DNA of 64,000 bases, taken from Botryllus schlosseri (Eukaryota). Positions 3,203 through 48,346 of the stretch are shown here, one piece after another (the stretch's first letter is position 1; each line of letters opens with the position of its first letter). A model generated the notes under the pieces. The model was not told where the DNA came from. It ran no database searches and saw only the letters and a program-made list of their open reading frames with translations. Location of the stretch: contig CM119371.1 in NCBI GenBank assembly GCA_051294905.1, forward strand, positions 41,108,001-41,172,000, in the 5' to 3' direction. Position numbers and translations under genes: made by a program.

Positions 3203-3251
3203 GCCCCCAAATTCAGTCATCAATAACTGAATAGTATATTCATATTAAAAT

Positions 3252-3298
3252 GAACCCGAATATTTTCGGCTGACACTCGTCAGGGGTAATCGTCAGCA
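3252..3298 (-). ncRNA. Minimal type I hammerhead ribozyme in the 3' pLTR
   Basis: Minus strand reads GCTGACGATT-ACCC-CTGACGA-GTGTCAGCC-GAAA-ATATTC-GGGT: intact CUGANGA/GAAA/UH core, ACCC:GGGT stem I, palindromic AATATT stem III. Confidence 0.88.
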
Positions 3299-3388
3299 AC
3301 TAGTAGAGAATTCGAAAGAACAGCGTATATCAACAATCGTAACACAAAATATGACGTCACCAGCACGAAATGTCGAATACGAGAGCGT

Positions 3389-5017
3389 TCAATGTACTAT
3401 TTTTAGATGATACACGAACTCTTTTTGTTGACACAGCCTTGGCTGGTGTATTTTGATAAAAGTCGACTCCAAGGCGCACAAATGAAAGTGTGAGCGACCC
3501 TTTCCGAGTATGCGAAATCTGTCGTCTCGATAATTTTTCGCGCAGGCGGGATTATCCAACAAGTGTTTGCCAATTGCAGAATTTATGGCCTTTGATTGTT
3601 CCGCATCAATCTTGAGCGGGTGAGTTAAGGGTGAGCTTTTCATCGAGCGTGTTCTAATGAATCTAGGGACATGCTGATTTATGCGTTCCTGCAATCGCTT
3701 TGACGTTCTTCCCACGTAGCCACAATCACAGTGACACTTAAATTCGTAAACTACATTGCTTTGCTGAAGTGCGGGTAGCACGTCTTTACGTGTTGCGGGG
3801 AGCAGTTGCGCTGTCGTGAAAATCACGTTGGTCTTCACTGTGTCGTAACACTTATTGACCGCTGAAATCAATTGCTTTTCAAAGCGGGTGGAAATAGGCC
3901 CTATCCAAGGTAGATGGATGTAAACATCTTTGGTTGTTCGTTCGGTAGGCTCTGTTGACTTTTCTGCATTGAAATGCGTTACTTTCCTCTCTATGCCACG
4001 GTTGATGACATGTTCAGGGTAACCGTTATCAAGTAAGATTTTCCGGATATTGTCAAGTTCTGAGTTCAGTTTATTACCCGAACATATCATCAACGCTCTA
4101 TGCACGAGGGTGCCTATGAGGTTGATTTTTCCGCGTCTAGGACTAAATGAGTTCCAACGAAGGTATTGGCCAGTGAATGTCGGTTTCCGGAAGATTGACG
4201 TTTCAAATTTATTGGTATCATGTTTTTCGACTAAAACGTCCAAAAATGACAATGAGTTATTTCGTTCTTTTTCAATTGTGAATAACAGAGCCGGGTGAAG
4301 CGAGTTTAAGTGAATGAGAAATTGATCACAGTCTATCTCATTTCTGAAAATGACAAAAGTGTCGTCTACATAACGTCGGTACAACACCGGTTTGGCGGAC
4401 ACACGCTGGGTGAGAAGCTCGACCTCATAAAATCCTACGAAAATGTTAGCCAAAATAGGTCCCAAGGGAGATCCCATCGATATGCCGTCTATTTGTTTAT
4501 AGATAACATCGTTAAAGCTAAATTCAACAGAACATGTAGCTGCCTGTAAAAGTTCAACAAAAACTTTACGCGGCATTGATGGTGGTGCTAGCTTACCGCC
4601 GTAAAGCGCGTTCGCACAAATATCGATAGTCTCTTGCAGCGGAACGTTTGTAAAGAGACTAGAGATATCAAATGAGCTCAAGAACACTTCTGAATCCGGC
4701 AGGTTCAGGTTTCGCATTTCACTGGCGAAAGTGAACGAATCACGAACACATTCGGTGCCGTACAGTTCGCGAACAGGTTCCAAGATGCCGATAAGCCATT
4801 TTGCCAGTTGATGTTGAGCAGACCCGATCATAGACAGTATCGGTCTCATGGGAACGTTTTCTTTGTGAGTTTTTGGTAGTCCATACATGCGTGGTCTTTG
4901 CGATCCCGTTGGTCTGATTGAGCTATATATTTCCGCAGTCAAAATAGTACATAGTACATAGTACAAAATAGTACATTGAACGCTCTCGTATTCGACATTT
5001 CGTGCTGGTGACGTCAT
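3389..5017 (-). CDS. Penelope-type reverse transcriptase / GIY-YIG endonuclease (first ~26 aa come from the inverted pLTR and junction)
   Basis: YGLPKTHK..PMRPI, SFDISSLFTNV, QIDGISMGSPLG, RYVDDTF, FLDV; endonuclease NVVYEFKCHCDCGYVGRT...RINQH...AIGKHL; uninterrupted frame. Confidence 0.93.
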   Translation of the reverse strand: MTSPARNVEYESVQCTILYYVLCTILTAEIYSSIRPTGSQRPRMYGLPKTHKENVPMRPILSMIGSAQHQLAKWLIGILEPVRELYGTECVRDSFTFASEMRNLNLPDSEVFLSSFDISSLFTNVPLQETIDICANALYGGKLAPPSMPRKVFVELLQAATCSVEFSFNDVIYKQIDGISMGSPLGPILANIFVGFYEVELLTQRVSAKPVLYRRYVDDTFVIFRNEIDCDQFLIHLNSLHPALLFTIEKERNNSLSFLDVLVEKHDTNKFETSIFRKPTFTGQYLRWNSFSPRRGKINLIGTLVHRALMICSGNKLNSELDNIRKILLDNGYPEHVINRGIERKVTHFNAEKSTEPTERTTKDVYIHLPWIGPISTRFEKQLISAVNKCYDTVKTNVIFTTAQLLPATRKDVLPALQQSNVVYEFKCHCDCGYVGRTSKRLQERINQHVPRFIRTRSMKSSPLTHPLKIDAEQSKAINSAIGKHLLDNPACAKNYRDDRFRILGKGRSHFHLCALESTFIKIHQPRLCQQKEFVYHLKIVH

Positions 5018-5069
5018 ATTTTGTGTTACGATTGTTGATATACGCTGTTCTTTCGAATTCTCTACTAGT

Positions 5070-5116
5070 TTCTGACGATTACCCCTGACGAGTGTCAGCC
5101 GAAAATATTCGGGTTC
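5070..5116 (+). ncRNA. Minimal type I hammerhead ribozyme in the inverted pLTR
   Basis: ACCC-CTGACGA(5085-5091)-GTGTCAGCC-GAAA-ATATTC-GGGT; predicted cleavage after C5110. Confidence 0.88.
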
Positions 5117-7575
5117 ATTTTAATATGAATATACTATTCAATTGTATATTGAAGTTCTGTACCTCAAAGAAGCTGTTCATCAATAACTGTGATTCATTCC
5201 TGCATTTGGAGTTGTTCATTATTCACATATCTGTATAGAATTGAGTAAAATCTCTAAATCTATACTCTTATATAGAGAAGTTAACATGAGCAGGATTATC
5301 TGATCCTTGTTGCATTGGCATTTGTACATAGATTTAACCCGATTAACCTATTATAATTTAGAACATTGTCTGATTTCAAGATATACCTCCTCTCCCCCTT
5401 TTGTTTAACCTCCCCGCCTTTCTTTCGGCTTGCTATGCGCCTGGTGTTACAGCATATCAATAATGCTAATAGCTGATAAATACTCGTGCATGTTAGTAAA
5501 AATAGTCATCCAGGACCTTAATGGTTCTATGCAGTGTTATGGAAAATATAAGTTGGTGGTATGCGAACTGAAAAGGGCTGAGAAACCCTGTCCCAGAAGT
5601 TAACGCGTCAGAACGTCATTTTTAATTAATGGATATGTACTGTACAATGAGCTCGCGAAAAATCCTAGTCTTGACGTAAAATCTAGCACTGGCAGCAACC
5701 AAGCTAATTCGCATGCACTGGATGGCCTTTGCTAATCCCTTGTTTGTGAAAATCAGTGGTATCGAGATCTCATGTACAATGTGTTTATCGCAGTAGTACA
5801 CAGTAACGGTACAGTAGTTAGTTAGGTGCCATGTTCATTATAAACCTAAAACTGGAGCATTCCTTAATCGAAGTTAATACTTGGCAGCGAGCCAGCTTGT
5901 TCTACGACTTAAGCCCAGGCCATGACAACCCGATATTTTAGTACTGGTATAGTATAGATTATGTGTTCACGCAAACGTGAATGGCCATGCTTAAACTGTT
6001 GCATAATGATGCAGTGTTAAATTTTTAGCGACTATGTGGCTCGTTTAGCCTACTTCCACTTCGCTTCAACCTAACAGTTTTCAAGGCAAAACTACTTATT
6101 TCGTTCACTTATAATTTGGTAAAATAGAAAATAGTATCAAGGCATTTTTGCATCACCTTCATTAGTGAACTGTGTGTGATTAGTGAACAAATGAGCTAAA
6201 TAGCGCCTGTATCGCGGTAACTGAAATTACGTTTCAAAATTGCGCCTGTTTACAGTTTGCATTTGGCGTTAAGTCGCTTAGATGCACTTGGCAATTTCAG
6301 AAGTAGAAACTCTCATAAATAAAAAATATGAATTGTGGTTGGGAGCACGGGAACTAACTGTAGTTTTATGTAAAATTTCGAGAAAGTACAGGGGGAAATG
6401 AAATAATGTCATTATTGCATAGAATTCATGTATTACCATGAGGAATATTTTTGTACATGGACCGGCAAAGCCCTTGCGTTAGATAACAATCCTAAGAGAA
6501 TTGATTAGGACAGTCTCACTGGTTCACCAGAGGTGAAGACTAGTATTATGTATGATGACATGATGATCTTCTTGGCCATCATTGGCTACAAGAAATCTGT
6601 CCAATCTGTAGTCGAAGAGTGACAATTGTGGTGGTACGTCTTGAACAGTGGCGTATGCAGCGAAGTTAGTGTTTGAAAGCAAACCCCGTACTTCTAAAAT
6701 GCTGATTCCATCTCCAAATTTATTAGCTCATTGGCAATTGAGGAATTGGTATCACGCTGTTTTGTTTCCGCAGAACGATATGATGACACTTTGCAAGGTG
6801 AAGCCTCGCATTTCTGAACTGGTATCTCCAACGGAACAGCAGAACTCATACTCGTTTTCAGTCAGTCGTATATTTTTATTCATTCAATGAGAAAATATTC
6901 GCAATAATATTTGTTAATTATGTTGTATTGGTTCTGTTCTGTTAACACTCTGTTGTTGCACAGTTCATTTTGCACACCAAAAATCTATCGTAGTGTATTA
7001 GATGCTCAACACAAGTGTTTGCCAGGTCAATAATGTCCAAGAACCACCGAGATAAGAGTGAATCAGCATACTCGAATAGATAACGTAACGTAAGCTTAGG
7101 TATACTCTGAACATTGTTTCGACAAGTCATGCCGATTTTAAGTGCTTCAGCATTGAATGCCTTGGGAGAGTGCAAACTTTTTAACAATTTTGTGTTTTCG
7201 TCATTCTGATAATGATTTTGATCATACTTCTGTCGCCCTTAATCTATTGTCAAGAACAGCCACCGTTTGCTGTCTGGACTGTCCCCAAAATCTAATAACC
7301 ATTAATAGAAATGTTGATATGTATCATGGGAAACAGTGGTCGTGTTGTTGCACTTTTCTATATGGTGCGTGTGTCTATTGTATCATAGAAGCGCTGACTT
7401 ATTTATATTTTAAAAAGTAGCCAGCTCCACCGCTTAAAGTATCTTAATATGCGAATATTTCTTGTTCAGCCTCATATCGATTGCGATAGACAATTATTTA
7501 GTACGGAGCATAACAAAATCAAGTTCAGTAATAGCTGCAATAAAACATTCGCAGCAGTTCCTTTCAAACTTTCGA

Positions 7576-8616
7576 ATGGGGAGTCACAGGCAGTCTGCGG
7601 GATGTGGATGTGAGATTTGCGGCAAAGTGTTTGCCGCCAAGCGGAAATTGAAAAAGCATATGAATATTCACACTGGGTCCAAAAATTTTGAATGCGATAT
7701 TTGTGGCAAAAAGTTTCTTTCCAGTGGAAAGCTTTTGTCCCATATCGCAATACACACAGAAGCTTACACTGGCAGTTGCGAGATTTGCGGCAAAGTGTTT
7801 CACACGAGGCAGTACTTAAAAAGTCATATGGCAATTCACATAATTACCAAACACTATCAATGTGATATTTGTGGCAAAAAATTTCTTTACAGTGGACACT
7901 TTTGGGCCCATGTCAAAATACACACGAAAGAGTACATGAGCAGCTGCGAGATTTGTGGCAGGGAATGCTATTCCAAGATAGGTGTCAAGGTTCATATGAA
8001 GGTGCACCTTCCAAAGGAAACCCTCCCATGTGAGGTCTGCGGAAAGTTGTTCCTGTCGATGCCACATCTGAAAAATCACATGGCGGGACATGAAGTTAGT
8101 ATTCCTGGCTCTGAAGATGCCCAGGGCCAAAGCTTGGACGAACACTTTAAAAACAACGCCAACCTCAAAAAGTATGAATGCAAAGTGTGCGGAAAATCAT
8201 TTCCCCGAAGGATCAGTCTCATTAGACATCTCAAACATCATGCCCGGGACAGGACCCGAGACCATCCCTGTGAGGTCTGTGGCAAAATGTATTTGACAAA
8301 CCAACATTTAAAGAGACATATGATTGCTCATCTCGTGACTGCAAAAAATTTTGTATGTTCAATCTGCGGAAAGGGATTCATTACTTTCGATCAAATGAGA
8401 CTCCATATGACGTCGCATATCGTGAAGAACTATCCTTGTGAAATTTGTGGTCAGATATTACACAGCAAGCTGGGATTCATGTTGCATATGAATATGCATG
8501 CAGGGTTAACCACTCATCATTGCGAGATGTGTGGGAAGTCATTTGTCCACATCGCTAGATTAAAGCACCATCGACGCATTCACATTACCCCTAAAAATAC
8601 TGCAGCTGAGGGGTGA
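7576..8616 (+). CDS. C2H2 zinc-finger protein, 11 fingers (6+5 with a spacer)
   Basis: 11 CxxC-x12-HxxxH motifs; first ATG at 7576 (the ORF track opens at TTG 7462); no effector domain visible. Confidence 0.88.
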   Translation: MGSHRQSAGCGCEICGKVFAAKRKLKKHMNIHTGSKNFECDICGKKFLSSGKLLSHIAIHTEAYTGSCEICGKVFHTRQYLKSHMAIHIITKHYQCDICGKKFLYSGHFWAHVKIHTKEYMSSCEICGRECYSKIGVKVHMKVHLPKETLPCEVCGKLFLSMPHLKNHMAGHEVSIPGSEDAQGQSLDEHFKNNANLKKYECKVCGKSFPRRISLIRHLKHHARDRTRDHPCEVCGKMYLTNQHLKRHMIAHLVTAKNFVCSICGKGFITFDQMRLHMTSHIVKNYPCEICGQILHSKLGFMLHMNMHAGLTTHHCEMCGKSFVHIARLKHHRRIHITPKNTAAEG

Positions 8617-9679
8617 TTGCGTGAAATCATTTATGATAACAAAAGTTGTATAGTGATATTGGGAATGCGGTTTGTATTTACGTCGGTGTGACACTGCTGT
8701 ATTTGAAGTGGAGAAAAGGTTACTATAAAATGCCTTTCGGATTTTGGCCTGTTTTGATGTTTTCTCACTGCGCATCGTCACAACAAATTTTTGATTTTGA
8801 CAGCAACAGTGACAACTGCTACACAGCGTCCTTGTAATTTTGCTTAAGTACTTTCATTTTCATCGTACTCTCATGCCTTTCTGTGTTCAAAATTCATGAT
8901 TTCTCGAATTTCGCTACTGAATGTGTGTGAAACTGTGTATTGCCTTGCTATATAAACTTACTGCAACCACATCCTATCATTAGTCGCACTGTGCAAGCTG
9001 ACAGAACAAAGTTGGCACAACTTTTTTCCCTTCAGAAGGAAGTAATTTTTTATTGCCCTGTGTCTTATGTCTTCCAGTATTTTATACTTCAGGTTGCAAA
9101 TAATGATCATCGATACAGATCGTACTCGAAAAACCATAATTTTATGGAGATGTGGCTTGCTTTTCTCTCCGGCCAACCATGAGGGACGACTTTTCCTTCA
9201 ACATTAAAATTTCAATTTCAACACTGTTTTATAATTCTTAATTTTTCATAACTGCGAACTGTCCTAGTTACGTGTGCTGCTGAAATAGCCTTCATCTTAG
9301 CAGTAGGTAAATGAAATTCGCGGATACTCGTAGGACTCCTGATTCGTGGAGGCTGCGTCAAACTTGTACTGATATTGGCGCGCGACTAGCAATACAAGCA
9401 GCGATATGTGTTTGACGTCCTGTGATCATAATTGTTTGAATCGCATGTAAGGCAGATTTTTTTCTGTCCGGCATGTACTGACTGTATTTGATATTGTGAC
9501 AGCTACTTGATACTGGATGTTGTTTATATTACAATGTAATTTTGTCTTTACAGATAACAAGTGTTACAGTCTAGTTTATTCAACTTGCATTAGACCAGTT
9601 AAATTCAACTTGTAGACACTGAAACTCCAAGAAGAGACGCAGGTCGAAAATCAGTTACGTTCTCTGGGGATTTGCGGAT

Positions 9680-10380
9680 ATGGAATGTCCAATGTGCGGC
9701 AAGAACTACAAATAAAATTACATAAAGATCCACATGCGCAACCACTACAGAATCAAGCCACACGCTTGCTCCATCTGCAGCGAAGGCTTTTCCACCTAGG
9801 CAAGTCTGTAACATCACATCCTTTGAAAATGCCCCTCCATAACATTTGTCCAGACGTTTAGCAGGGACTTGCTATTGGAAAACCACACCAGTACGCAAGA
9901 CAATCGCCTATAACTGCAGCATAAAACGTATTGTGAACTGATACCGGTTACCCTCAAAATTTAGCGAAAGCGTTATTTCACGTCATACTGGTCGTTCTGG
10001 ATGAGTTTATGACGCTGTCATTGGTCATTGGTCACGCAATATAATTTTCGATACATACATTCCAGAGCAGTTAACTGGTAATGGTAATCCCGCATGTGTC
10101 TCCGCAAATATGTAGACTATAATGTTAAACAAATGCGTCTATTTCCCACCAGAAACCATTGAATTACCCTCCGGTTGGGAACCACTGTTCTAAAGGGAAG
10201 ACGTACCATTGTGAGCATTGCAACAAATCATTTCGCACCATGCGGCATGAAATTTGTTACCAAATCGTATCTGGTTAAACATATCGACATTCGCAATCCT
10301 GTTCCTAGTTATCAGTGTAAGATCTGCAGAAAGAGCTACAATACAAAATGAATCTTAAAGAGCCATATCAAAAATCCTTA
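9680..10380 (+). pseudogene. Decayed C2H2 zinc-finger gene
   Basis: MECPMCGKNYK*NYIKIHMRNHYRIKPHACSICSEGF; later YHCEHCNKSFRT and YQCKICRKSYNTK*; stops, frameshifts and inserted DNA. Confidence 0.75.
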
Positions 10381-11921
10381 GTAGGCTATTAGGCAGAAAT
10401 ATGACAGCTGTAAGGGCCAGTATGCAATCGGTGTCCTTGGCAATCGTAATCACTCGATGAAGTAGCGTTTACTGACTGAACAACTAACATAAAATGGCTG
10501 TTAGACTTTACAAATGCTATTAATTGATTCTGTATCAAGATCGTTGTCAACGGAACTGCTAATATTTTCACCAGATATTCGTTGAATTTGTGATTTAAAA
10601 TACCGGTCTCTAAAGCGAAGCGAAATCATTTCAGTAAAAGCGTCTGAGAACTTCAACAATGTCCTGCTACAATCGTATGCAACAAAATCTGTTTAGTTAC
10701 TAGAGCCCGACCAGCCAACCACTATCAATATATTCAGCCAATATTGAAAAGATATGACATGTAGCTTGAGGCGAACTTCCAAAACTTCAGAGCTTTTACT
10801 TGAACAGTTTCACAACCATCTCTTGGACATAAAATGAACTAGCAAGGCTGCACCTGTAAGCTATAAGAAATAGGGTCCGTGAATATATCTGCATGTGACA
10901 TAATATCGTATGGCACCTCAGCATGCAACAATTGGGCATGCCAAACTTGAGAATGTGGGAAAAATTTGGGATTAGGATCGGGTATGGTGCGGATTGGGTT
11001 AGGTTTAGATGTAGGTTTGGGGTTACGATATATTTTATTATTTTTGAACAGCCCTCATGCTCATATGCCAAGCGTCCAAAAATAGATCAACATTCCTAGC
11101 CTATCAGTGTTTTTCATTCTATCGCATGCTCATATGTCAAGCACCCAAAAATAGCCGTCTAGCAGTTGTAGATTATAGTTCTACTACCGTGTTGTGACTT
11201 CTGTGAATATTTTCTGTACCGATATTTCTTTGAAAGTCTGATATCAACTTGGTATTATCAGAGAACTGACAATTGGGTAGGTACAAGCCAAATACAAGGC
11301 TCTGTCCACTGATAATCATGAGCATTACTTGATGTTTCATAGCGGTGTGTTTTCATATTGACAGGTTTATATTATGAATCTTGCAATTACTTGAAATCAG
11401 AAGTTATCAGTTATGAAATAATTCTACTTTATATGACTACTCGAGTAGGTTTTGTTGAGTAGGGCTACTTACCATTACCACAACAGCCTGGTGAGTGGTG
11501 ATATAAGCCCCTGTAACCTTTGATCTTTCTATATGAGTTGTGAAGATGTATATTGTGACTTTTGAAGTGCTTGTCACAAAGTTTTCTTGATTAGATGCGA
11601 ACTAGTTTCCATCTTGTTTTGGTATGTTCTGAAAATGCTACTTCTTCTGCGACGTATATTTTAGAAGATGTTTGCTGCAATATTTGTTTTCTTTGTGGTG
11701 CTACCATTAAATGGTGTTAATGTAGTTTCTTTACTCTGATTTGATTATTTATTGTCGAAACTATTATCCTGTACCTTTGTTTGGTTCATTGAAATTGAAA
11801 TGATTACCTTCCGGGCAGGGTATGTATCGAAGTATCGCTATGGTATTGTAGTGGATAGTGTGATTTATTGGCTGCGACGAGGAGGCTTCAACTACGACAA
11901 TTGTTTTAAAAAACCTGAAGC

Positions 11922-12286
11922 ATGAGTCACCTTCATCGTAGCATGCAGCCCTCGGAATGCCCGATATGTGGGAAGAATATATCTACAAAAAAAACTTGGA
12001 ACGGCATGTGCTTGGACACTACGGAGTAAAAAAGTACAATTGCTCTATTTGTGGTCGTACGTTTACGGCAAAAACAGGTTTGGATTATCATATGAATGGT
12101 CACAAAAAAGTTTCGGATAGAAAGACATACGAATGTGAGGTATGCGGAAAATCTCTTCGTTCGAAGCGCGGCATACAGATACACATGAAGGTTCACTTAG
12201 GTATAAAAGACTACAAATGTGATATATGTGGTAATGAGTTCGTTGTCAAGACTGATTTGCATAAACACATGGACACGCACAGCTGA
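11922..12286 (+). pseudogene. 4-finger C2H2 gene with a 1-nt deletion in finger 1 (A8 run)
   Basis: ATG 11922 MSHLHRSMQPSECPICGKNISTK, then a frame change at A8 11987-11994; intact paralog at 27529. Confidence 0.8.
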
Positions 12287-13041
12287 TAACACTCGTGAAT
12301 GATCGGAATCTGGAAGTGGTTTCGATCTCGCAACGGGATGTGTTGAAATTAATCTGTAGCGGAATATGCAACTAGGATTGTAAAATATTGCTGCGTCTGC
12401 TTTCTTTCTGACATTGAATCCAAGATTCTCTTTGTTTACCATTGTGTTTTTGTTTCACTGACATAAAACGGTAAACCTGTGCCTTTTAGAATCATATCCT
12501 AACCTGAAAGTCGCGTTGACGATGTGTGTGCTCGTTTTTGCTTTTTAGTTGATTTTCAATGCTTATTCCAAGCGAGCGGCAAGTGAGTATAGGTCATTTT
12601 AAACCGACTCTTCTTGATTTGTGTCTCTTTTTTGTGAAACGAACTGGTTTCTGTACACTGTTTCTGTTATTGGTCTTATTATCTGCCGACATCAGTAATA
12701 CAAATCTCTTCTCTATATAAAACGAAGACTGCCTTCAAACATGACCCTCTCAGCTCCGACAATGTCCGAATTGTTTTCATTGCGGGAATACTAATTCTTG
12801 TATCCTCCGAGCTACACGCCAACGCGTGCCATTAAATGATGTTAATGTAGTTTCTTTACTTAGATTTGATTATTTATTGTCGAAACTATTATATTGTACC
12901 TGTGTTGGATTCATTGAAATGACCACTTTCTTGGCAGGTTACGTATCGAATTTATCGTTACGGTATTGTAGTGGATAGTGGGATTTATTGGCTGCCAGGC
13001 GGAGGCTTCATCTACGACAAATAGTCTCCGGAGCACCGAAC

Positions 13042-13425
13042 ATGAGTCACCTTCATCGTAGCCTACAGCCTGTGGATTGTCCGATATGTGGCAAGATTAT
13101 CTCCCATAAAACAAACTTGAAAAAGCATGTGCTCGGACACTACGGAGTAAAAAAGTACAATTGCTCTATTTGTGGTCGCACGTTCACCACAAAAATGGGT
13201 TTGGATTATCACATGAATGGCCACAGAAAACTTTCGGATAGAAATACGTATGAATGTGAGGTATGCGGAAAATGTCTACAGTCGAAAACCGGCATGAGGA
13301 TACACATGAAGGATCACTTGGGTATACGAGAGTACAAGTGTGATATATGTGATAAGGAGTTCATTGTCAGGGCTGATTTGTATAACCATATGAAGAAACA
13401 CACGTCTAATAACAGTCATGGATGA
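13042..13425 (+). CDS. 4-finger C2H2 zinc-finger protein
   Basis: MSHLHRSLQPVDCPICGK...; four complete fingers; first ATG at 13042. Confidence 0.82.
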   Translation: MSHLHRSLQPVDCPICGKIISHKTNLKKHVLGHYGVKKYNCSICGRTFTTKMGLDYHMNGHRKLSDRNTYECEVCGKCLQSKTGMRIHMKDHLGIREYKCDICDKEFIVRADLYNHMKKHTSNNSHG

Positions 13426-14449
13426 TCAGGATCAGCAACTGGATTAGGACATACTCGGACATAATGGGATGCGTTGAAGTCTACAACGGCATATGCAACT
13501 CGGACTGGAAAATGGTACTGCGTCGGTTCGCGGACTTCTTTCTAATATTGAACACAAGCTTTGTCTTGTAGCCATTGTGCCTGTCGAATGATATCCCAAA
13601 ATGAAAGCCTAACTGATGAAGAGTGTTCTCTCTTTTTCGTTTTTCTGGATTTTCAGTCCTTATCCCAAGCAAGAAAATTGCGCATGAGTCAGAGCTGCAA
13701 CTTTTGAAGGGTGCACCACTCTTAAAAAGGCTGAAGAACACTGGTCTGACCTACCACTAAAAATATCATATAAAATGACTGATTGGCACAACTTTTTTCC
13801 CTTCAGAAGGAAGTAATTTTTTATTGCCCTGTGTCTTATGTCTTCCAGTATTTTATACTTCAGGTTGCAAATAATGATCATCGATACAGATCGTACTCGA
13901 AAAACCATAATTTTATGGAGATGTGGCTTGCTTTTCTCTCCGGCCAACCATGAGGGACGACTTTTCCTTCAACACTAAAATTTCAATTTCAACACTGTTT
14001 TATAATTCTTAATTTTTCATAACTGCGAACTGTCCTAGTTACGTGTGCTGCTGAAATAGCCTTCATCTTAGCAGCAGGTAAATGAAGTTCGCGGATACTC
14101 GTAGGACTCCTGATGCGTTTAGGCTCCCTCAAACTTGTACTGATATTGGCGCGCGACTTGCAATACAAGCAGCGTATGTGTTTGACATCCTGTGATCATA
14201 ATTGTTTGCATCGCATGTAAGACAGATTTTTTTCTGTCCGGCATGTACTGTCTGTATGTGATATTGTGACAGCTACTTGATACTGGATGTTGTTTATATT
14301 ACAATGTAATTTTGTCTTCACAGATAACAAGTGTTACAGTCTAGTTTATTCAACTTGCATTAGACCACTTAAATTCAACTTGTAGACACTGAAACTCCAA
14401 GAAGAGACGCAGGTCGAAAATCAGTTACGTTCTCTGGGGATTTGCGGAT

Positions 14450-15778
14450 ATGGAATGTCCAATGTGCGGCAAGAACTACAAATAAAATTACATAAAGATC
14501 CACATGCGCAACCACTACAGAATCAAGCCACACGCTTGCTCCATCTGCAGCGAAGGCTTTTCCACCTAGGCAAGTCTGTAACATCACATCCTTTGAAAAT
14601 GCCCCTCCATAACATTTGTCCAGACGTTTAGCAGGGACTTGCTATTGGAAAACCACACCAGTACGCAAGACAATCGCCTATAACTGCAGCATAAAACGTA
14701 TTGTGAACTGATACCGGTAACCCTCAAAATTTAGCGAAAGCGTTATTTCACGTCATACTGGTCGTTCTGGATGAGTTTATGACGCTGTCATTGGTCATTG
14801 GTCACTAGGGCTGTTGAAAAATAACCTTTTTCCATGAATCTTGCTCATTACTTGATTAAATGGTTAGGTTGCCTTAAAAAACGACGCACACCAAATATGA
14901 ATTCATTCCAACCAATATTCGCGGATTTCGTAGAGTTTGAAAATTTTGAATTTGCCTAAAAATGCAAAACAATTTTTTTTTCAAATTTTCCTTCCAACCT
15001 TATGAAATTGTTGCGCTGTCTTCAAAAACGATGGAAAACAAATTTGACTCAATTCCAAGCTGCAGAAGCGGAGTTATTCAAGTTTTTAGATGATAATTCT
15101 GGGATGATCCACCAATCAAGGATAATCCCAGTATTATCAAAGAAAAACTGATATAACTCCACTTCTACGGCTTCGAATTGAGTCAAATTTGTTTTGCATC
15201 GTTTTTGAAGACAGCGCAACAATGTAATGGGGTTGGCAGAAAAATTTGACAAAAATTTTTTTTTGGCATTTTTAGGCAAATTCAAAATTTTCAAACTCTA
15301 CGAAATCCGCGAATATTGGTTGGAATGAATTCATATTTGGTGTGCGTCGTTTTTTAAAGCAACCTAACGATTTAATCAAGTAATCAGCAAGATTCATGGA
15401 AAAAGGTTATTTTTCAACAGCCCTATTGGTCACGCAATATAATTTTCGATACATACATTCCAGAGCAGTTAACTGGCAATGGTAATCCCGCATGTGTCTC
15501 CGCAAATATGTAGACTATAATGTTAAACAAATGCGTCTATTTCCCACCAGAAACCATTGAATTACCCTCCGGTTGGGAACCACTGTTCTAAAGGGAAGAC
15601 GTACCATTGTGAGCATTGCAACAAATCATTTCGCACCATGCGGCATGAAATTTGTTACCAAATCGTATCTGGTTAAACATATCGACATTCGCAATCCTGT
15701 TCCTAGTTATCAGTGTAAGATCTGCAGAAAGAGCTACAATACAAAATGAATCTTAAAGAGCCATATCAAAAATCCTTA
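14450..15778 (+). pseudogene. Duplicate of the decayed zinc-finger gene, with a MITE insertion
   Basis: Same lesions as 9680-10380, plus the 14806-15425 insertion. Confidence 0.75.
14806..15425. mobile_element. 620-bp foldback MITE (hAT-type)
   Basis: TAGGGCTGTTGAAAAATAACC...GGTTATTTTTCAACAGCCCTA, palindromic along almost its whole length; 8-bp TSD TTGGTCAC (14798-14805 / 15426-15433); empty site at 10028-10035. Confidence 0.96.
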
Positions 15779-17329
15779 GTAGGCTATTAGGCAGAAATAT
15801 GACAGCTGTAAGGGCCGGTATGCAATCGGTGTCCTTGGCAATCGTAATCACTCGATGAAGTAGCGTTTACTGACTGAACAACTAACATAAAATGGCTGTT
15901 AGACTTTACAAATGCTATTAATTGATTCTGTATCAAGATCGTTGTCAACGGAACTGCTAATATTTTCACCAGATATTCGTTGAATTTGTGATTTAAAATA
16001 CCGGTCTCTAAAGCGAAGCGAAATCATTTCAGTAAAAGCGTCTGAGAACTTCAACAATGTCCTGCTACAATCGTATGCAACAAAATCTGTTTAGTTACTA
16101 GAGCCCGACCAGCCAACCACTATCAATATATTCAGCCAATATTGAAAAGATATGACATGTAGCTTGAGGCGAACTCCCAAAACTTCAGAGCTTTTACTTG
16201 AACAGTTTCACAACCATCTCTTGGACATAAAATGAACTAGCAAGGCTGCACCTGTAAGCTATAAGAAATAGGGTCCGTGAATATATCTGCATGTGACATA
16301 ATATCGTATGGCACCTCAGCAAGCAACAATTGGGCATGCCAAACTTGAGAATGTGGGAAAAATTTGGGATTAGGATCGGGTATGGTGCGGATTGGGTTAG
16401 GTTTAGATGTAGGTTTGTGGTTACGATATATTTTATTATTTTTGAACAGCCCTCATGCTCATATGCCAAGCGTCCAAAAATAGATCAATATTCCTAGCCT
16501 ATCAGTGTTTTTCATTCTATCGCATGCTCATATGTCAAGCACCCAAAAATAGCCGTCTAGCAGTTGTAGATTATAGTTCTCCTACTACCGTGTTGTGACT
16601 TCTGTGAATATTTTCTATACCGATATTTCTTTGAAAGTCTGATATCAACTTGGTATTATCAGAGAACTGACAATTGGGTAGGTCCTAGTTACAAGCCAAA
16701 TACAAGGCTCTGTCCTCTGATAATCATGAGCATTACTTGATGTTTCATAGCGGTGTGTTTTCATATTGACAGGTTTATATTATGAATCTTGCAATTACTT
16801 GAAATCAGAAGTTATCAGTTATGAAATAATTCTACTTTATATGACTACTCGAGTAGGTTTTGTTGAGTAGGGCTACTTACCATTACCGCAACATCCTGGT
16901 GAGTGGTGATATAAGCCCCTGTAACATTCGATCTTTCTATATAAGTTGTGAAGATGTATATTGTGACTTTTGAAGTGCTTGTCACAAAGTTTTCTTGCTT
17001 AGATGCGAACTAGTTTCCATCTTGTTTTGGTCTGTTCTGAAAATGCTACTTCTTCTGCGACGTATATTTTAGAAGATGTTTGCTGCAATATTTGTTTTCT
17101 TTGTGGTGCTACCATTAAATGGTGTTAATGTAGTTTCTTTACTCTGATTTGATTATTTATTGTCGAAACTATTATCCTGTACCTTTGTTTGGTTCATTGA
17201 AATTGAAATGATTACCTTCCGGGCAGGGTATGTATCGAAGTATCGCTATGGTATTGTAGTGGATAGTGTGATTTATTGGCTGCGACGAGGAGGCTTCAAC
17301 TACGACAATTGTTTTAAAAAACCTGAAGC

Positions 17330-17694
17330 ATGAGTCACCTTCATCGTAGCATGCAGCCCTCGGAATGCCCGATATGTGGGAAGAATATATCTACAAAAAA
17401 AACTTGGAACGGCATGTGCTTGGACACTACGGAGTAAAAAAGTACAATTGCTCTATTTGTGGTCGTACGTTTACGGCAAAAACAGGTTTGGATTATCATA
17501 TGAATGGTCACAAAAAACTTTCGGATAGAAAGACATACGAATGTGAGGTATGCGGAAAATCTCTTCGTTCGAAGCGCGGCATACAGATACACATGAAGGT
17601 TCACTTAGGTATAAAAGACTACAAATGTGATATATGTGGTAATGAGTTCGTTGTCAAGACTGATTTGCATAAACACATGGACACGCACAGCTGA
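17330..17694 (+). pseudogene. Duplicate 4-finger gene with the same A8 frameshift
   Basis: ATG 17330; A8 at 17395-17402; otherwise near-identical to 11922-12286. Confidence 0.8.
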
Positions 17695-18449
17695 TAACAC
17701 TCGTGAATGATCGGAATCTGGAAGTGGTTTCGATCTCGCAACGGGATGTGTTGAAATTAATCTGTAGCGGAATATGCAACTAGGATTGTAAAATATTGCT
17801 GCGTCTGCTTTCTTTCTGACATTGAATCCAAGATTCTCTTTGTTTACCATTGTGTTTTTGTTTCACTGACATAAAACGGTAAACCTGTGCCTTTTAGAAT
17901 CATATCCTAACCTGAAAGTCGCGTTGACGATGTGTGTGCTCGTTTTTGCTTTTTAGTTGATTTTCAATGCTTATTCCAAGCGAGCGGCAAGTGAGTATAG
18001 GTCATTTTAAACCGACTCTTCTTGATTTGTGTCTCTTTTTTGTGAAACGAACTGGTTTCTGTACACTGTTTCTGTTATTGGTCTTATTATCTGCCGACAT
18101 CAGTAATACAAATCTCTTCTCTATATAAAACGAAGACTGCCTTCAAACATGACCCTCTCAGCTCCGACAATGTCCGAATTGTTTTCATTGCGGGAATACT
18201 AATTCTTGTATCCTCCGAGCTACACGCCAACGCGTGCCATTAAATGATGTTAATGTAGTTTCTTTACTTAGATTTGATTATTTATTGTCGAAACTATTAT
18301 ATTGTACCTGTGTTGGATTCATTGAAATGACCACTTTCTTGGCAGGTTACGTATCGAATTTATCGTTACGGTATTGTAGTGGATAGTGGGATTTATTGGC
18401 TGCCAGGCGGAGGCTTCATCTACGACAAATAGTCTCAGGAGCACCGAAC

Positions 18450-18833
18450 ATGAGTCACCTTCATCGTAGCCTGCAGCCTGTGGATTGTCCGATATGTGGC
18501 AAAATTATCTCCCATAAAACAAACTTAAAGAAGCATGTGCTCGGACACTACGGAGTAAAAAAGTACAATTGTTCTATTTGTGGTTGCACGTTCACCGCAA
18601 AAATGGGTTTGGATTATCACATGAATGGCCACAGAAAACTTTCGGATAGACATACGTATGAATGTGAGGTATGCGGAAAATGTCTACAGTCGAAAAACGG
18701 CATGAAGACACACATGAAGGTTCACTTGGGTATAAAAGAGTACAAATGTGACGTGTGTGGCAAGCAGTTCGCCAGAAGTAATAATTTGCATAGACACATG
18801 GAGACACACAGAGCTGATAGGAGTCATGAATGA
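18450..18833 (+). CDS. 4-finger C2H2 zinc-finger protein with a replaced finger 4
   Basis: Paralog of 13042-13425; finger 4 reads CDVCGKQFARSNNLHRHMETH. Confidence 0.82.
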   Translation: MSHLHRSLQPVDCPICGKIISHKTNLKKHVLGHYGVKKYNCSICGCTFTAKMGLDYHMNGHRKLSDRHTYECEVCGKCLQSKNGMKTHMKVHLGIKEYKCDVCGKQFARSNNLHRHMETHRADRSHE

Positions 18834-19352
18834 TCAAGAAACACGTGTCTAATAACAGTCATGGAGGATCAGGATCTGCAACTGGATTGAAACATACTCG
18901 GATATGATGGGATGCGTTGAAGTCTACTACGGAATTTGTAGCTCGGTTTTATAAATGGTACTGCGTCGGCTCGCGGCCTTCTTTCTAATATTGAACACAA
19001 GCTTTGTCTTGTAGCCATTGTGCCTGTCGAATGATATCCCAAAATGAAAGCCTAACTGATGAAGAGTGTTCTCTCTTTTTCGTTTTTCTGGATTTTCAGT
19101 CCTTATCCCAGGCAAGAAAATTGCGCATGAGTCAGAGCTGCAACTTTTGAAGGGTGCACCAGTGCACCACTCTTAAAAAGGCTGAAGAACACTGGTCTGA
19201 CCTACCACTAAAAATATCATATAAAATGACTGTTTCTAGGTTCAACCCATATCTATTCCGATAGACGCTTGATTTTCTGCTTACCAGAATAGAATCAAGT
19301 TTAGCGGCAGCTGCGATAAACCATTTTTAAGCAGATGAATTCAAACTTTCGC

Positions 19353-19515
19353 ATGGGGATTCACGTTCGATCCGCAGAATGTGGATGTGAAATTGTTGTA
19401 AAGTATATGCGGTTGCAAGTTTACCACAAAAACTGGTTTGGGTCGCCATATGATTGATCACAGAGATCCTTTGGATAAAAATAAGTACCATTGTAAGTGT
19501 GCGGAAAATGTCTTG
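19353..19515 (+). pseudogene. Internally deleted relic of the 7576-type zinc-finger gene
   Basis: TCAAACTTTCGCATGGGGATTCAC...GAATGTGGATGTGAAATT matches the 7576 start (MGIHVRSAECGCEI); following sequence resembles 8700-8830. Confidence 0.65.
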
Positions 19516-19906
19516 GTATGATCCTATTGTGTTGCAACTGGAAAGCGGAGAAAAGGTTACTATGAAGTCGCTTTCGAATTTTTAGACTCTGTTATGGTCA
19601 TATGTCGTCACTAGGCATTGTCACAACAACCTCTATTTGATTTTGACCACATTTGTGGCAACTTCTACAGGTATTATGTTTCCGAAAGTGACCATGTACT
19701 CGGTAATGCTATCTGTGTATCTGTTATACTCTACTATATTGAAGCAAAATAAATATTCTTAACATAATGTTTGTGCAACTGTGCATTGACCCCTTGGATC
19801 AACTTACAGCAACTTTATCCCATCACCGGTAGGGCTGGGCCCAATCGATTGTGAATCAAGTGAGCTCGATCACGACTTCACAGATATCTCATTTACACTA
19901 AAGTGT

Positions 19907-23342: not shown

Positions 23343-24075
23343 CTGATATATGCGCACATTGGAGTTTGGTCATCAACATTAATTCGTGATTCGAGTTTTA
23401 TGGTGGGACCCTTTGAGTCAAAACTGATACAGAGGTGCGACACCATATATTTGAATCTTAATTAAGTGACTATCTTACTCTCAATGGAGCATGATATATG
23501 GGTTTCGCATTAGCCTTTTCGCTTTTGAGAAGAACTTGGGAATTGGGTGTCAATGTCAGTGACTTGGTTGCTAATGGTGACTGGAGTGAAACCAATTAAC
23601 GCTGTCGGATGATTATATTGCGGCCTATAAACATAATTTAACATTTGTTGCCTCAAAGGATAATAGGCCTATAAGTATTTCCCAATTCACTAAAAACTGC
23701 TTTGTGAAATCGTGTTGCAGGCGGTCTGTTTGACACCCCTGCTCTAAAAGTTCCGTTGTATAACCAGCCTGACACGAATTCGTTGTCAAATTTTAACCTC
23801 TCTCTTTACAAATCCCGCACTGAGTAGCGTATTTGTATAAATATACCAGAGTGGTAATTTCGCTATTCGCAAACTAATGGGGTACTTTATTTAGATCCAT
23901 TCCATACTTTCATACATAAGGCACAAACTTGACTCGAACTCGGATGTTTTCTGTATCACCGCCAAAACGTTCCCAGGACCTCTACCGACCATTCTGAAGA
24001 AAAGAGAGAGGCATAGAATAACATAGAACAATTTTTTATCTCTACTCGAGATAGTCAATACAATATTCCCTTAAT

Positions 24076-25455
24076 ATGGATGTGCGTGCTGACACCCCAA
24101 ATCATAAATGTGATATATGCGAGAAACTATTTGCTCGTAAGGATAGCCTCAAGCGTCATATGGATATACATGCTGGCATCAAGAACTATAAATGTTATAC
24201 ATGCGGGAAAGAAAGTACTTCAAAGAATGGCCACAAGCGTCATATGAATGTGCATGCTGGCGTCAAAAAACACAATTGTGATATTTGTGGTAGAAAATTC
24301 AGCCAGAAAGGTACCCTCAAACTTCATATGGATATGCATGCTGGCGTTCAAAGGCTTGAATGCGAAATTTGTGGGAAGGGATTTCGTCGAAGAAGTAATT
24401 TCCGTCTTCACATGGATATGCATGCTGGCATCAAAAACCATGAATGTGAAATTTGTGGAAGAAGATATTGTAGAAAAGTTGACTTGACCCACCATATGGA
24501 TATGCATTTAGGCGTTAAAAATCATAAATGTGATATATGTGGGAAAGCATTCACCTGGAAACATGAACTCAAGCTTCATCTGGATATGCACGCTGGTGGT
24601 AAAAACTATAAATGCGATATATGTGATAAAGAATTCAGGCACAAAAGTACACTGAAGATTCACATAGATATCCATGGTGGCATCGAAAACTATAAATGTA
24701 TTATATGTGAGAAAGTATTTACTGGAAAGAGCAGCCTCAAGCAGCATATGGATATGCATGCTGGAATCAGAAACTATGAATGTGATATTTGTGGGAAGGA
24801 ATATATTCAAAAAAGTAAACTCACGGTTCATATGAATATACATGCTGGCGTCAAAAATCACGAATGTAATATTTGTGGCATGACATTTACTTCAAAGGGG
24901 TGTCTCAAGAATCACATGACTATACATAATGTCTTCAAAAACTATGAATGTGAAATTTGTGGGAAGGAATTAAGTTACAAATCAACACTTAAGCTTCATA
25001 TGGATAGACATGCGGGCACAAAAAATTGTAAATGTGATGTTTGTGGAAAAGAATTTATTTACAAATGTAAACTCAAGTGTCATATGGATATGCATGCCGG
25101 CATCAAAAATCATAAATGTGAGTTATGTGGTAAAGCATTTACCTTGAAAAGCAACCTCTGGGTTCATATTGATACTCATAAAGACGTCAAAAACCACGAA
25201 TGTGATATTTGTGGGAAAGAATTTGTTCAAAAGACAGCACTAAAGCTTCACATGAATATTCATCTGAGCTTGAAAAACCATAAATGTGATGTTTGTGGGA
25301 AGGAATTTATTCAAAAAAGCAAACTTGAGTGTCATATTGATATGCATGCTGGCATCAAAAATTATAAATGTGAGTTATGTGGGAAAGGATTGCTGACTAA
25401 GCGTAATCTCGAGCGTCATATAAATGCATGCTGGGATAAAAAATCACGAATGTGA
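24076..25455 (+). CDS. Poly-C2H2 zinc-finger protein, 15 complete fingers plus a frameshift-terminated 16th
   Basis: 28-aa tandem repeats with HAGIKN(H/Y) linkers; an out-of-frame MHAGIKNHECDLC continues past the end. Confidence 0.9.
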   Translation: MDVRADTPNHKCDICEKLFARKDSLKRHMDIHAGIKNYKCYTCGKESTSKNGHKRHMNVHAGVKKHNCDICGRKFSQKGTLKLHMDMHAGVQRLECEICGKGFRRRSNFRLHMDMHAGIKNHECEICGRRYCRKVDLTHHMDMHLGVKNHKCDICGKAFTWKHELKLHLDMHAGGKNYKCDICDKEFRHKSTLKIHIDIHGGIENYKCIICEKVFTGKSSLKQHMDMHAGIRNYECDICGKEYIQKSKLTVHMNIHAGVKNHECNICGMTFTSKGCLKNHMTIHNVFKNYECEICGKELSYKSTLKLHMDRHAGTKNCKCDVCGKEFIYKCKLKCHMDMHAGIKNHKCELCGKAFTLKSNLWVHIDTHKDVKNHECDICGKEFVQKTALKLHMNIHLSLKNHKCDVCGKEFIQKSKLECHIDMHAGIKNYKCELCGKGLLTKRNLERHINACWDKKSRM

Positions 25456-27528: not shown

Positions 27529-27894
27529 ATGAGTCACCTTCATCGTAGCATGCAGCCGACGGAATGCCCGATATGTGGGAAGAGTATATCTACAAAAGCA
27601 AACTTGAAACGGCATGTGCTCGGACATTACGGAGCGAAAAAGTACGATTGCTCTATTTGTGGTCGTACGTTTACCGCAAAAACAAGTTTGGATTATCACA
27701 TGAATGGTCACAGAAGACTTTCGGATAGACAGACGTACGAATGTGAGGTGTGCGGAAAATCTCTGCGCTCGAAGCGCGGCATACACTTACATATGAAGGT
27801 TCACTTGGGTATGAAAGACTACAAATGTGATATATGTGGTAATGAGTTCATTGTCAAGACTGATTTGCATAAACACATGGACACGCACAGCTGA
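27529..27894 (+). CDS. 4-finger C2H2 zinc-finger protein (intact paralog of 11922/17330)
   Basis: Four complete fingers; flanks ~27000-28430 are homologous to ~11420-12830. Confidence 0.85.
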   Translation: MSHLHRSMQPTECPICGKSISTKANLKRHVLGHYGAKKYDCSICGRTFTAKTSLDYHMNGHRRLSDRQTYECEVCGKSLRSKRGIHLHMKVHLGMKDYKCDICGNEFIVKTDLHKHMDTHS

Positions 27895-38816: not shown

Positions 38817-39213
38817 TTTAACATCATAATACCCATCTATTCAATCCCACGAGACTGATACTACATCGATAAATTTAGAAAAACTTTCGAACCTTCTTTT
38901 TACGAACCTACACTCGTTTCGCGACTGAGTACATACCCAAGTGTAATGGATTGGCTATTGCACTGTCTACAATCTAATGATGCACTCTTTTCAGATCACT
39001 TTTAAGCTTTCATACGTATCAGATATTGTCATACTGTCGTTAGGTCAAGTTTTATACGTTAAATAGTGTGAACAAGACTGACATCTACACTTTCAACAGT
39101 AAAAGCGTTCTTTGGACCATTGACGACCATTTTTGTGCAAAAACGTGGGACATTGATGTGATATATGTGAGATAGTATTTGCTCAGAAAGATAGCATCAA
39201 GCTTCATATAGAT

Positions 39214-40836
39214 ATGCTTGCTGGTATAAAAAATCATCAATGTGATATATGCGGGAAAAAAACCTCCAGGAAGAGCCACCACGGGCGTCATATGGATATG
39301 CATTATGGTTTCAAAAATCATAAATGTGAAGTATGTGGGAAAAGATTTACCAGGAAGGAAGGACTCAAAAGACATATGACTATGCATACTGGCATCAAAA
39401 ATCATGAGTGTGACATATGCGGGAAAGCATTTGCTCGCAAAGGTGAACTCAACGTACATTTGGATTGGCATGCTGGCATCAAAAACCATAAGTGTGATAT
39501 TTGTGGTAAAAGATTTAGTCAAAGCAGCATATTAAGAGGTCATATAGATATGCATGCTGGTGTGAAAAACTACAAATGTCATATATGTGGAAAATCCTTT
39601 ACTCTGAAGAACGATTTGAAGCTTCATTTGGATGGGCATGCCGGCGTCAAAAACAGAGAGTGTGATATTTGTGGTAAAAGATTTGGACAACACTCTCATC
39701 TAAAGAGTCATATCGATATGCATGCAGGCCTAAAAAAACATACATGTGTTATATGTAGAAAATCCTTTACTCTGAAGAGCGAATTATACCTTCATACGCA
39801 TATTCATACTGGCATCAAAAAACACGAATGTGATATTTGTGGTAGAAAGTTCGGTCATAAAACTCCACTCAATGTTCATATGAATATGCATGCTGGTGTC
39901 AATAAGCTTAAATGTGATATTTGTGGGAAGGGATTCCGTCTAAAAAGTAAGCTCCAGCGTCACATGGATATGCATGCTGGAATCAAAAACCATGAATGCG
40001 AAATTTGTGGAAAGAGATATTTCGATAAAATTGACTTAACCCGCCACATTGATATGCATGCTGGCGTTAAAAATTTTAAATGCAATATATGTGGGAAAGC
40101 ATTTTCATTCAGGATTAGCCTCAAACTTCATATTGATACACACGCTGACAGCAAAGAACATAAATGTGATATCTGTGGTAAAGAATTCAGTCGCAAAGGT
40201 GAACTCAAGAAGCACTTCGATATGCATGTTGACATCAAAAATTATGAATGTGTTATATGTGCAAAAGCATTTACTAGAAAGAGTAGCCTCAAAAATCATA
40301 TGGGTATGCATGCTGGCATCAGAAACCATGAATGTGATATTTGTGGAAAAAAATTTATTCATAAAAGTAAACTCAATGCTCATATGGCTATACATGCGGG
40401 CGTCAAGAATCATAACTGTTACATATGTGGTAAGGCATTTATTTCAAAGTCTGGCCTCAAGAATCACATGAATACGCATGCAGCAGTCAAAAACTATCTA
40501 TGTGAAATCTGTGGGAAAGAATTAGGATATAAACATACATTCAAGAACCACATGGACATGCATGTTGGCATCAAAAACCATAAATGTGATGTTTGTGGAA
40601 AAGAATTCCTTGTAAAAAGTAAACTTGAGCTTCACATGGATATGCATGTTGGTGTCAAACGTCATAAATGTGATATATGTGCGCGAGCGTTCACTTTCAA
40701 GGATAACCTCACGGTTCATATTGGTACACATTCTGGTGTTAAAAACTACAAATGTGATATTTGTGGAAAAGAATTCCGTTTGAAGGGAACACTCAAGTTT
40801 CACATGGAATTTCATGATGGCTTAAAAAAAACATAA
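39214..40836 (+). CDS. Poly-C2H2 zinc-finger protein, 19 fingers
   Basis: 19 tandem fingers with AGIKN(H/Y)-type linkers; decayed fingers both upstream (39157-39213) and downstream (to ~41060). Confidence 0.9.
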   Translation: MLAGIKNHQCDICGKKTSRKSHHGRHMDMHYGFKNHKCEVCGKRFTRKEGLKRHMTMHTGIKNHECDICGKAFARKGELNVHLDWHAGIKNHKCDICGKRFSQSSILRGHIDMHAGVKNYKCHICGKSFTLKNDLKLHLDGHAGVKNRECDICGKRFGQHSHLKSHIDMHAGLKKHTCVICRKSFTLKSELYLHTHIHTGIKKHECDICGRKFGHKTPLNVHMNMHAGVNKLKCDICGKGFRLKSKLQRHMDMHAGIKNHECEICGKRYFDKIDLTRHIDMHAGVKNFKCNICGKAFSFRISLKLHIDTHADSKEHKCDICGKEFSRKGELKKHFDMHVDIKNYECVICAKAFTRKSSLKNHMGMHAGIRNHECDICGKKFIHKSKLNAHMAIHAGVKNHNCYICGKAFISKSGLKNHMNTHAAVKNYLCEICGKELGYKHTFKNHMDMHVGIKNHKCDVCGKEFLVKSKLELHMDMHVGVKRHKCDICARAFTFKDNLTVHIGTHSGVKNYKCDICGKEFRLKGTLKFHMEFHDGLKKT

Positions 40837-44293: not shown

Positions 44294-44999
44294 GAGTATA
44301 CCATAGTGTAGCGTACCGAAAGTACATTAATAACTGAACTGAGTAGAGTTTGTCGCCATCCATCACACCACAAATCAATCCGTCAGAAAATCGGTAAATC
44401 CAGTCCAAATCCTAATCCATTCAGAAAAATCTTCAATGCCAATCCAATCCAAATCTGACAAAATATCGCAAATCCTGTTTTTTCACATCCTAATCCACGT
44501 TAATCCCTGAAACCTACACAGCTGAGCAATTTGAGATTGATTTAGTTTGATGATCTAAATCCCATGAATGCCCGCAGTGAAAAGAACCACGACTGTTGGT
44601 TTTTGCGGTATATCTATATTCTCAACTTTCTGTTGGCATGAAATGATACTTCTGATCTGCATTGGAAGGAGCAAGGAGCACCAACGATTGGACTAAATAT
44701 ATCAAGACACATACCGATAAGAATATACCCTTGTATGAGCAAATTTATGCATCATAAAACGTTTGGTGTTATTTCAAGATGCGATGGATCACACACACAT
44801 TATATTACATAAAGGGTGTATGATACTGAATATCAAAACTGTACAGTACATTCATGCTATTGCACTATGCTCGGTAGTACGTATTAAGAGATCATTGCAG
44901 TTTTGATACTGATCGAGCGACGTCTTTCTTCAGCCAGCCGAAACACTGACGTACAAACAACATTGCGATATCAATCTGCCGGTCATAAAGTATGTACGT

Positions 45000-45614: not shown

Positions 45615-46083
45615 ATGTACGTACGTATGTAATTCCCCACCGGTGACGTTACCGGGATAAGGAGATCAATTTATCATTAACTACAAGAGTGTCTATATGA
45701 GGCATGACTCAAAATATAGCACAGTGGAAAAGCGATGGTCCCGAATTCGAACCTAGCTTAACAGTTTTCCGAGACTCGAGAATTGGTAGTCATGGGATAT
45801 GCCATTCTCATTTTTCGTCATATCACATTCGCTTCAGTTGTAAAAATAAGATTAAAACGAGGCATTTTATTAGGCTATTGCATTACAGCTATCCGTCAAT
45901 ATCAATATAAGTCAATCAGGAGATAGGGGCTAGTGAAACTGAAATTTAAGTTATTGTATGAAGAATGAGTATCACACAACGAATTTGGATTGGTATTATC
46001 ATTTGAAACAAGAAAAAAAGACGAAATTACTGGAAAGAATTATACGAAGTATTACACAACCCGCAGCATTAGTTCAGGGCAGA

Positions 46084-48234: not shown

Positions 48235-48346
48235 CTGAAAAATCGCGAAGGAATAAGAGAGAGTTCTGCGACAATTTTTTCGATTCATGAGTCATTTTGG
48301 GATAGGTTTGAATTGACTTTTAGGGTTGAAATTTTGTACAAACTAC

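Follow-up and report, generated by a model that had tools for sequence, protein, structure and literature searches.

Results

Two tandem units each carry a pair of four-finger genes

The window, by which we mean the whole 64-kb stretch of Botryllus schlosseri DNA analyzed here, is animal DNA without gaps (no N), and self-BLAST and alignment revealed within it a head-to-tail 4.8-kb tandem duplication whose two units are separated by a single additional A at 13782 (Table 1). Each unit contains two members of a family of small four-finger C2H2 genes, A1 and B1 in unit 1 and A2 and B2 in unit 2, and a further paralog, A3, lies beyond unit 2. The frameshift common to A1 and A2 falls at 17396 in A2 and at the matching site near 11988 in A1. 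The MITE is palindromic and of high copy number, as judged from public-run depth, has relatives at 44990-45624, and is an element that we take to be hAT-like. Unit 2 also has an 8-bp direct duplication (19154-19161) that is absent from unit 1, and apparently also from X5 and X6 among the public data, and could be a transposon excision footprint. Just to the right of unit 2, positions 19204-19670 hold the remnant of a decayed zinc-finger gene. Its resemblance to the 7438-8616 gene, in the 5' and 3' regions of the latter, is 71-74%, and its resemblance to A/B-family finger 2 is about 75%.

Elsewhere in the window, two of the three long C2H2 arrays have GIKNH-type linkers. The reverse-transcriptase ORF, presumably Penelope-type, is accompanied by a 176-bp inverted repeat of 99% identity (3228-3403 and 4965-5140). 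The PfkB kinase exon and a second exon, which we take to resemble a pseudouridine-5'-phosphate glycosidase, perhaps belong to one host gene with large introns.

Table 1. Coordinates of features in the window
Feature	Position	Strand	Remarks
Reverse-transcriptase ORF	3389-5119	-	576 aa; RVT_1 match
Long finger-only C2H2 arrays	7438-8616, 24055-25455, 39157-40836	+	11, 15 and 19 motifs counted
Unit 1 of tandem duplication	9012-13781	+	4770 bp; self-BLAST, alignment
Paralog A1	11922-12286	+	Four-finger family; 1-bp frameshift in finger 1; finger 4 helix VKTDLHK
Gene B1	13042-13425	+	127-aa ORF, four C2H2 fingers; finger 4 helix VRADLYN; single tail
Unit 2 of tandem duplication	13783-19232	+	Contains MITE and small indels; self-BLAST, alignment
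MITE	14806-15425	.	620 bp; terminal inverted repeats; 8-bp target-site duplication; unit 2 only
Paralog A2	17330-17694	+	1-bp frameshift in finger 1, as in A1; finger 4 helix VKTDLHK
Divergent tract	18437-18977	+	541 bp; whole B gene and 3' flank; unit-1 counterpart 13029-13534
Gene B2	18450-18833	+	127-aa ORF, four C2H2 fingers; finger 4 helix RSNNLHR
Segment of putatively foreign ancestry	18735-18835	+	Comprises finger 4 plus tail a, which has the working stop; uncertain left edge (about 18706-18752)
Orphaned B-type tail b	18836-18870	+	32/35 identical to B1 tail; old stop changed to GGA
Paralog A3	27529-27894	+	Intact four-finger ORF; finger 4 helix VKTDLHK; outgroup in comparisons
PfkB kinase exon	47944-48291	-	Pfam match
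Second exon	57903-58253	-	No Pfam match

B1 and B2 differ in their last finger and in the tail behind it

B1 and B2 each have four C-x2-C-x12-H-x3-H motifs and score far above the PF00096 cut-off of 25.2 bits (76.9 bits for B1 and 73.4 bits for B2). Among the Pfam families matched by the two ORFs (10 for B1 and 8 for B2) there was no KRAB, SCAN or BTB, nor did either gene have a SET match. TGEKP-type linkers are a motif of KRAB, SCAN and BTB poly-zinc-finger genes; those of B (YGVKKYN, RKLSDRHTYE, and LGIKEYK) are not of this type. A protein search with B2 gave 4 matches among 5 candidates, all at only 27-32% identity, and the 150 best protein representatives were long generic finger arrays with 27-40% identity. 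The PfkB exon, used as a query in turn, matched none of 329 candidates. No match to a 21-base family motif turned up in metagenome contigs, and a literature search, mostly of titles and abstract openings, found neither a paper on this four-finger family nor an ascidian terminal-finger swap. Finger 2 of B2 has an arginine-to-cysteine change at 18585 (CSICGC) that is seen neither in B1 nor in the A copies.

A first-pass annotation of this DNA had singled out finger 4 as the difference between otherwise near-identical duplicates, and the two fingers do differ: finger 4 of B1 (from 13339) is CDICDKEFIVRADLYNHMKKH, with V, A, D, and N at helix positions -1, 2, 3, and 6, whereas that of B2 (from 18747) is CDVCGKQFARSNNLHRHMETH, with R, N, N, and R at the same positions. 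A V-x-x-D-L helix is common to B1 and all three A copies, and R-S-N-N-L is the odd one. The finger of B2 also has its own stop and tail, as had been claimed; 35 extra bases (18801-18835, tail a) include a working stop codon at 18831-18833. Directly behind it stands tail b, which had been taken for a leftover of the unit-1 tail. A paralogous 35-mer is indeed present there, but it is not a copy, as 3 of 35 bases differ from the B1 tail, among them TGA to GGA at the old stop. Tail a is identical to tail b at 24/35 positions and to the B1 tail at 26/35.

The RSNNLHR helix is predicted from its residues to read 5'-GAG-3', so that B2 would read a different 5' triplet than B1; finger 4 is in this sense a "specificity module" by prediction from the recognition code. 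In the available part of one study, the engineered helix RSANLVR binds GAG (PMC3919609). The two helices agree at -1 (R), +1 (S), +3 (N), +4 (L), and +6 (R) and differ at +2 and +5, where RSNNLHR has N and H; RSNNL as a string is absent from the main text of that source. Unlike in the engineered system, the neighboring fingers and linkers of B2 are non-canonical, and its binding is therefore a prediction only. Such a helix is unusual in this DNA: among 63 fingers counted in the window, the +1 residue is K in 49 and S in 4. In RNA (6% of one raw run), there were two reads at 13065 (with at least 5 other differences) and three at 17475 with the A3-type letter, and depth on the B2 finger-4 bin was 0.3, too few reads to judge expression.

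Divergence between the units is concentrated in a gene-sized tract

The two units differ by 91 substitutions, 57 of which lie inside 506 aligned bases (13029-13534 in unit 1 and 18437-18977 in unit 2), in addition to the 35 extra bases. This concentration bears out the clustering at about 18430-18980 reported at first pass. When substitutions were placed at random, the maximum in 506 bases over 5,000 trials was 24, and the 23 substitutions found within 63 bases inside the tract were reached by 0 of 20,000 shuffles. The edges of the tract are sharp and lie within near-identical flanks. On the 5' side, the units differ at 32/2613 positions (1.2%) and then at 1/1404. Within the tract, 13/298 positions (4.4%) differ from the start to finger 3, 23/66 in the linker and finger 4, and 21/142 (14.8%) in the tail and 3' flank, followed by 1/247 beyond the tract on the 3' side. 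The preceding kilobases had been called almost identical; one substitution lies in the 1,404 bases next to the tract and 32 in the 2,613 bases farther 5'. Divergence is not uniform across the unit: rates of 4.4% and 14.8% beside the finger stand against 0.8% (34/4264) outside the tract (p = 4e-18 for tail b and flank, 21/142). We considered cDNA-mediated conversion, since the tract starts 13 bases before the ATG, and set it aside; no AATAAA lies near 18977.

Finger 4 and its tail appear to descend from another branch of the family

Finger 4 differs between B1 and B2 beyond its recognition residues. Outside the helix, 8 of its 39 bases differ, and third codon positions differ at 9/21 sites compared with 5/96 in fingers 1-3 (Fisher p = 4e-5). 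To place this segment, we compared the four distinct sequences of the window, unrooted, and counted site patterns against A2/A3 with sites of A2-A3 disagreement or gap excluded. B1 and B2 agree with each other against A2/A3 at 25 of 38 variable sites in fingers 1-3, versus 7 of 34 in finger 4 and tail a (p = 1.4e-4). Of the two tails, a is the nearer to the A tail (6/33, versus 11/33 for b), and it agrees with the A tail against B1 at five sites and tail b at none. Four sites and a length feature of 2 bp nevertheless group tail a with B1 and not with A, so the donor would itself be B-like and its distinctness a matter of degree. Given the homology of tail a with both the A and the B tails, finger 4 would stem from the last finger of another member of the same family. 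These comparisons support a different and older branch of the four-finger family as the origin of finger 4 and tail a, and the ancestry of the segment appears to differ from that of its flanks, the pattern by which a recombination or conversion tract is recognized. Of the original proposal that the finger was replaced from a paralog, we retain the paralogous origin, from a different and older branch and 35 bases out of register; a recent finger-sized cassette is not supported.

We detected no donor within the window by blastn, tblastn, or an ungapped scan. Matches to B2 finger 4 reached 45-46/63 in A1, A2, and A3, 42/63 in B1, and at most 38/63 in the long finger arrays, and a best match of only 46/63 agrees with the earlier placement of the donor paralog outside the window.

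The doubled tail is present in a second animal

We compared four of 24 listed public runs over positions 12700-19400. X5 is an independent animal (another sample from another study), and one of its contigs covers 18162-19161, doubled tail included, departing from the window by 48 letters and one gap. A feature held inside one contig of an independent sample is not the misassembly that had been named as a possible refutation. The X5 contigs listed cover most of one unit at depth 112-122, with A3-like contigs at 110-116; one of them continues unbroken from the start of the unit into 759 bases of other sequence; and, among those listed, nothing aligned on the bin of B1 finger 4 and tail. A single unit bearing a B2-type gene is therefore likely in X5, though a second unit may once have existed there and been lost. 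The doubled B2-type tail stands at a single-copy locus in X5, and the B1 type at single copy was not among the contigs listed. X5 may have the doubled tail without RSNNLHR, the places of the 48 differences being mostly out of view. Depth in X5 is zero at 19196-19400, in an alignment whose filter omits some records.

At 13 of 15 sites listed in 13846-14319, X5 has the letters of unit 1. Because X5 carries unit-1 letters there, and given a background of 56/3404 (1.6%) between X5 and the window, the 1.2% divergence of the 5' part of the units looks allelic. In X5, an additional base behind 17396 gives gene A an open frame, with otherwise 0 differences over 315 bases. Compared with the window, X5 thus differs at 0/315 positions across gene A and at 48/999 across gene B (p = 9e-8, with the background of 56/3404).

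A second X5 contig, of depth 97.3, is B1-like to 13277, continues with 24 other letters that encode a third finger-3 helix, beginning T-K-G-G-M-R, and is B2-like from 18710. By depth arithmetic, its match ends at 18839, right behind the junction of tails a and b: a contig end at 18839 predicts a depth of 152.26 for bin 18748-18971, where 152.3 is reported, and the same arithmetic on two neighboring control bins gives 95.25 versus 95.3 and 111.80 versus 111.8. The single-tail A3 sequence likewise ceases to align at 18839. This suggests a candidate donor lineage, a paralog with a B2-like finger 4 and one tail, as read from one joint row and a depth sum that unlisted contigs could also give.

In X1, possibly the assembled animal, region 14087-14258 occurs in three versions (about 8, 15, and 8 in depth) and hence in more than two copies, and one X1 contig ends exactly at 13781, where two continuations diverge. 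Its contigs have letters other than those of unit 1 at 13029, 13065, 13352, and 13460, and none of the contigs listed crosses the junction at 13782 or the whole stretch. These data fit a real duplication, and animals likely vary in how many copies of the unit they have, with about four in X1 and one per chromosome in X5.

Discussion

A mosaic gene within a probably young duplication

B2 is a mosaic in its pattern of divergence, and B1 and B2 most likely represent a single fast-changing locus in two deeply diverged versions. We favor a history, at a probability of roughly 55%, in which an old out-of-register recombination, a young duplication, and a gene-sized exchange between haplotypes brought the diverged B versions together. 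First, an old recombination would have given one B lineage the last finger and stop tail of an older family paralog. Its junction would have rejoined 35 bases early, doubling the tail and stranding the original one behind the new stop, where it would have decayed. Second, a chromosome with a frameshifted A would have been duplicated in tandem, and both the shared frameshift and the 1.4 kb of near-identity would follow from this. Third, exchange with other haplotypes would have brought in the 1.2%-diverged 5' part and the gene-sized tract of about 540 bp, the latter by conversion or double crossover and with either unit as the recipient. The outcome would be two diverged B versions 5.4 kb apart on one chromosome. 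The swap likely predates the 4.8-kb duplication, since both sides of the finger are diverged, the orphaned stop is lost, and the doubled tail is single-copy in X5. The frameshift and the 1.4 kb of near-identity common to both A copies are our reason for dating the exchange later than the duplication.

An old duplication is the alternative that fares best, and we regard it as unlikely. Conversion would keep the flanks near-identical while selection keeps B1 and B2 apart, with a peak of divergence at the finger-4 helix. Divergence is indeed maximal at the helix (13/24 bases) and lower to either side, and a 1,404-base run with one substitution is improbable even against the unit's own background (p = 0.0005), as such conversion would produce. 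Divergence peaks under gene conversion are reportedly the subject of a review by Fawcett and Innan. The red and green opsins, in the available text of PMC3924837, follow the same pattern, with a high local divergence peak at functional residues within near-identical duplicates; unlike these, the B duplication looks young and polymorphic, and its peak holds a foreign-looking segment and a doubled tail. The doubled tail is left unexplained by this model alone, and the model is at odds with one unit instead of two in X5, which speaks against a fixed duplication unless X5 lost a unit, with a 5' part at about allelic divergence where X5 matches unit 1, and with the sharp edges of the tract.

We consider it quite unlikely that finger 4 and the tail, or the 541-bp tract, were imported into unit 2 after the duplication from an unlinked paralog by conversion or template switching. 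Further B-like sequences do occur beyond the window, as X5 contigs with depths of 97 and about 61 and as variant letters in X1 and X6, and an import would leave sharp edges inside near-identical flanks. A recent finger-sized import, however, predicts near-identity after the junction, where 21/142 positions differ, and X5, in which the locus is single-copy, already carries the doubled tail, with 48 differences.

Very unlikely, in our estimate, is an origin without any donor, in which the tail was duplicated in place long ago by slippage and finger 4 then changed fast by point mutation under selection. It would account for 18 of 21 finger-4 differences lying in codons where the residue changes, for tails a and b both being 35 bases long, and for B2-specific changes also dominating the 3' flank (13 versus 5 B1-specific, of 21 differences), which fits faster change on the B2 branch as well. 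Against it, third positions and positions outside the helix have diverged too, tail a and not tail b sides with the A tail against B1, the two tails match at only 24/35, and X5 likely has a single-tail relative with a B2-like finger.

An assembly artefact, through chimeric joining or through tandem placement of two haplotypes, could draw on the missing contig across 13782 or the whole stretch, among those listed, and on the four X1 letters that differ from unit 1, but it is highly improbable given a doubled tail in one contig of an independent sample, three versions of one region and a contig end exactly at the unit boundary in X1, a gapless window, and the fact that a haplotype switch between units, which may have occurred, would not create the finger difference.

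Comparison with known systems

In a PRDM9-type finger minisatellite, the fingers within an array are homogenized at the DNA level and accompanied by a PR/SET domain. B is unlike such an array in that its fingers 2 and 4 are identical at only 37/63 bases and that there is no SET match. On the sequence features tested, B is neither a KRAB-type gene nor a PRDM9-type array.

Conversion among zinc-finger paralogs and recombination-driven change of fingers have been described, in the available portions of two sources (PMC2604467; bioRxiv 10.1101/2022.11.29.518450), and recombination has been proposed, in the former, as a fast way to alter binding specificity in poly-C2H2 expansions. The locus resembles these expansions, as the available text of Emerson and Thomas (2009; PMC2604467) presents them, in its clustered young paralogs and short inter-paralog conversion tracts. 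B is unlike them in having four fingers only, no KRAB, SCAN, or BTB match, and non-TGEKP linkers, and also in that the number of fingers is unchanged and the breakpoint is marked by an out-of-register scar. Recombination among clustered zinc-finger paralogs is a known process, and B1/B2 is likely one unusually clear example of it.

The pair also resembles the heterogeneous duplications of mosquito insecticide resistance, as portrayed in the accessible part of Milesi et al. (2017; PMC6121789): two diverged versions stand in tandem, and single-copy chromosomes exist. A heterozygote advantage fixed by the duplication, a mark of this class, would be hypothetical for B, and, unlike in the mosquito case, the mix of B1 and B2 would likely have come from exchange after duplication.

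Implications

A further reading, tentative and on the doubtful side, is that B is a hypervariable finger-only locus in which alleles import whole fingers from paralogs and are kept by balancing selection, in an invertebrate without KRAB genes; it is equally doubtful that the young duplication has locked two such alleles on one chromosome. The contrast in X5 between genes A and B, together with the third finger-3 helix, is a hint in this direction. We keep our estimate low because it draws on one other animal, in which the places of the differences are mostly hidden.

Recombination that replaces a whole finger has been proposed as a quick way to acquire new DNA targets, and B1/B2 would be a clean natural case with a visible breakpoint. 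As the two 127-residue proteins differ mainly in the last finger, comparing them would be a direct test of a change in target. If B is truly hypervariable among animals and gene A, 1.1 kb away, is not, this would hint at an arms-race locus in an invertebrate zinc-finger family.
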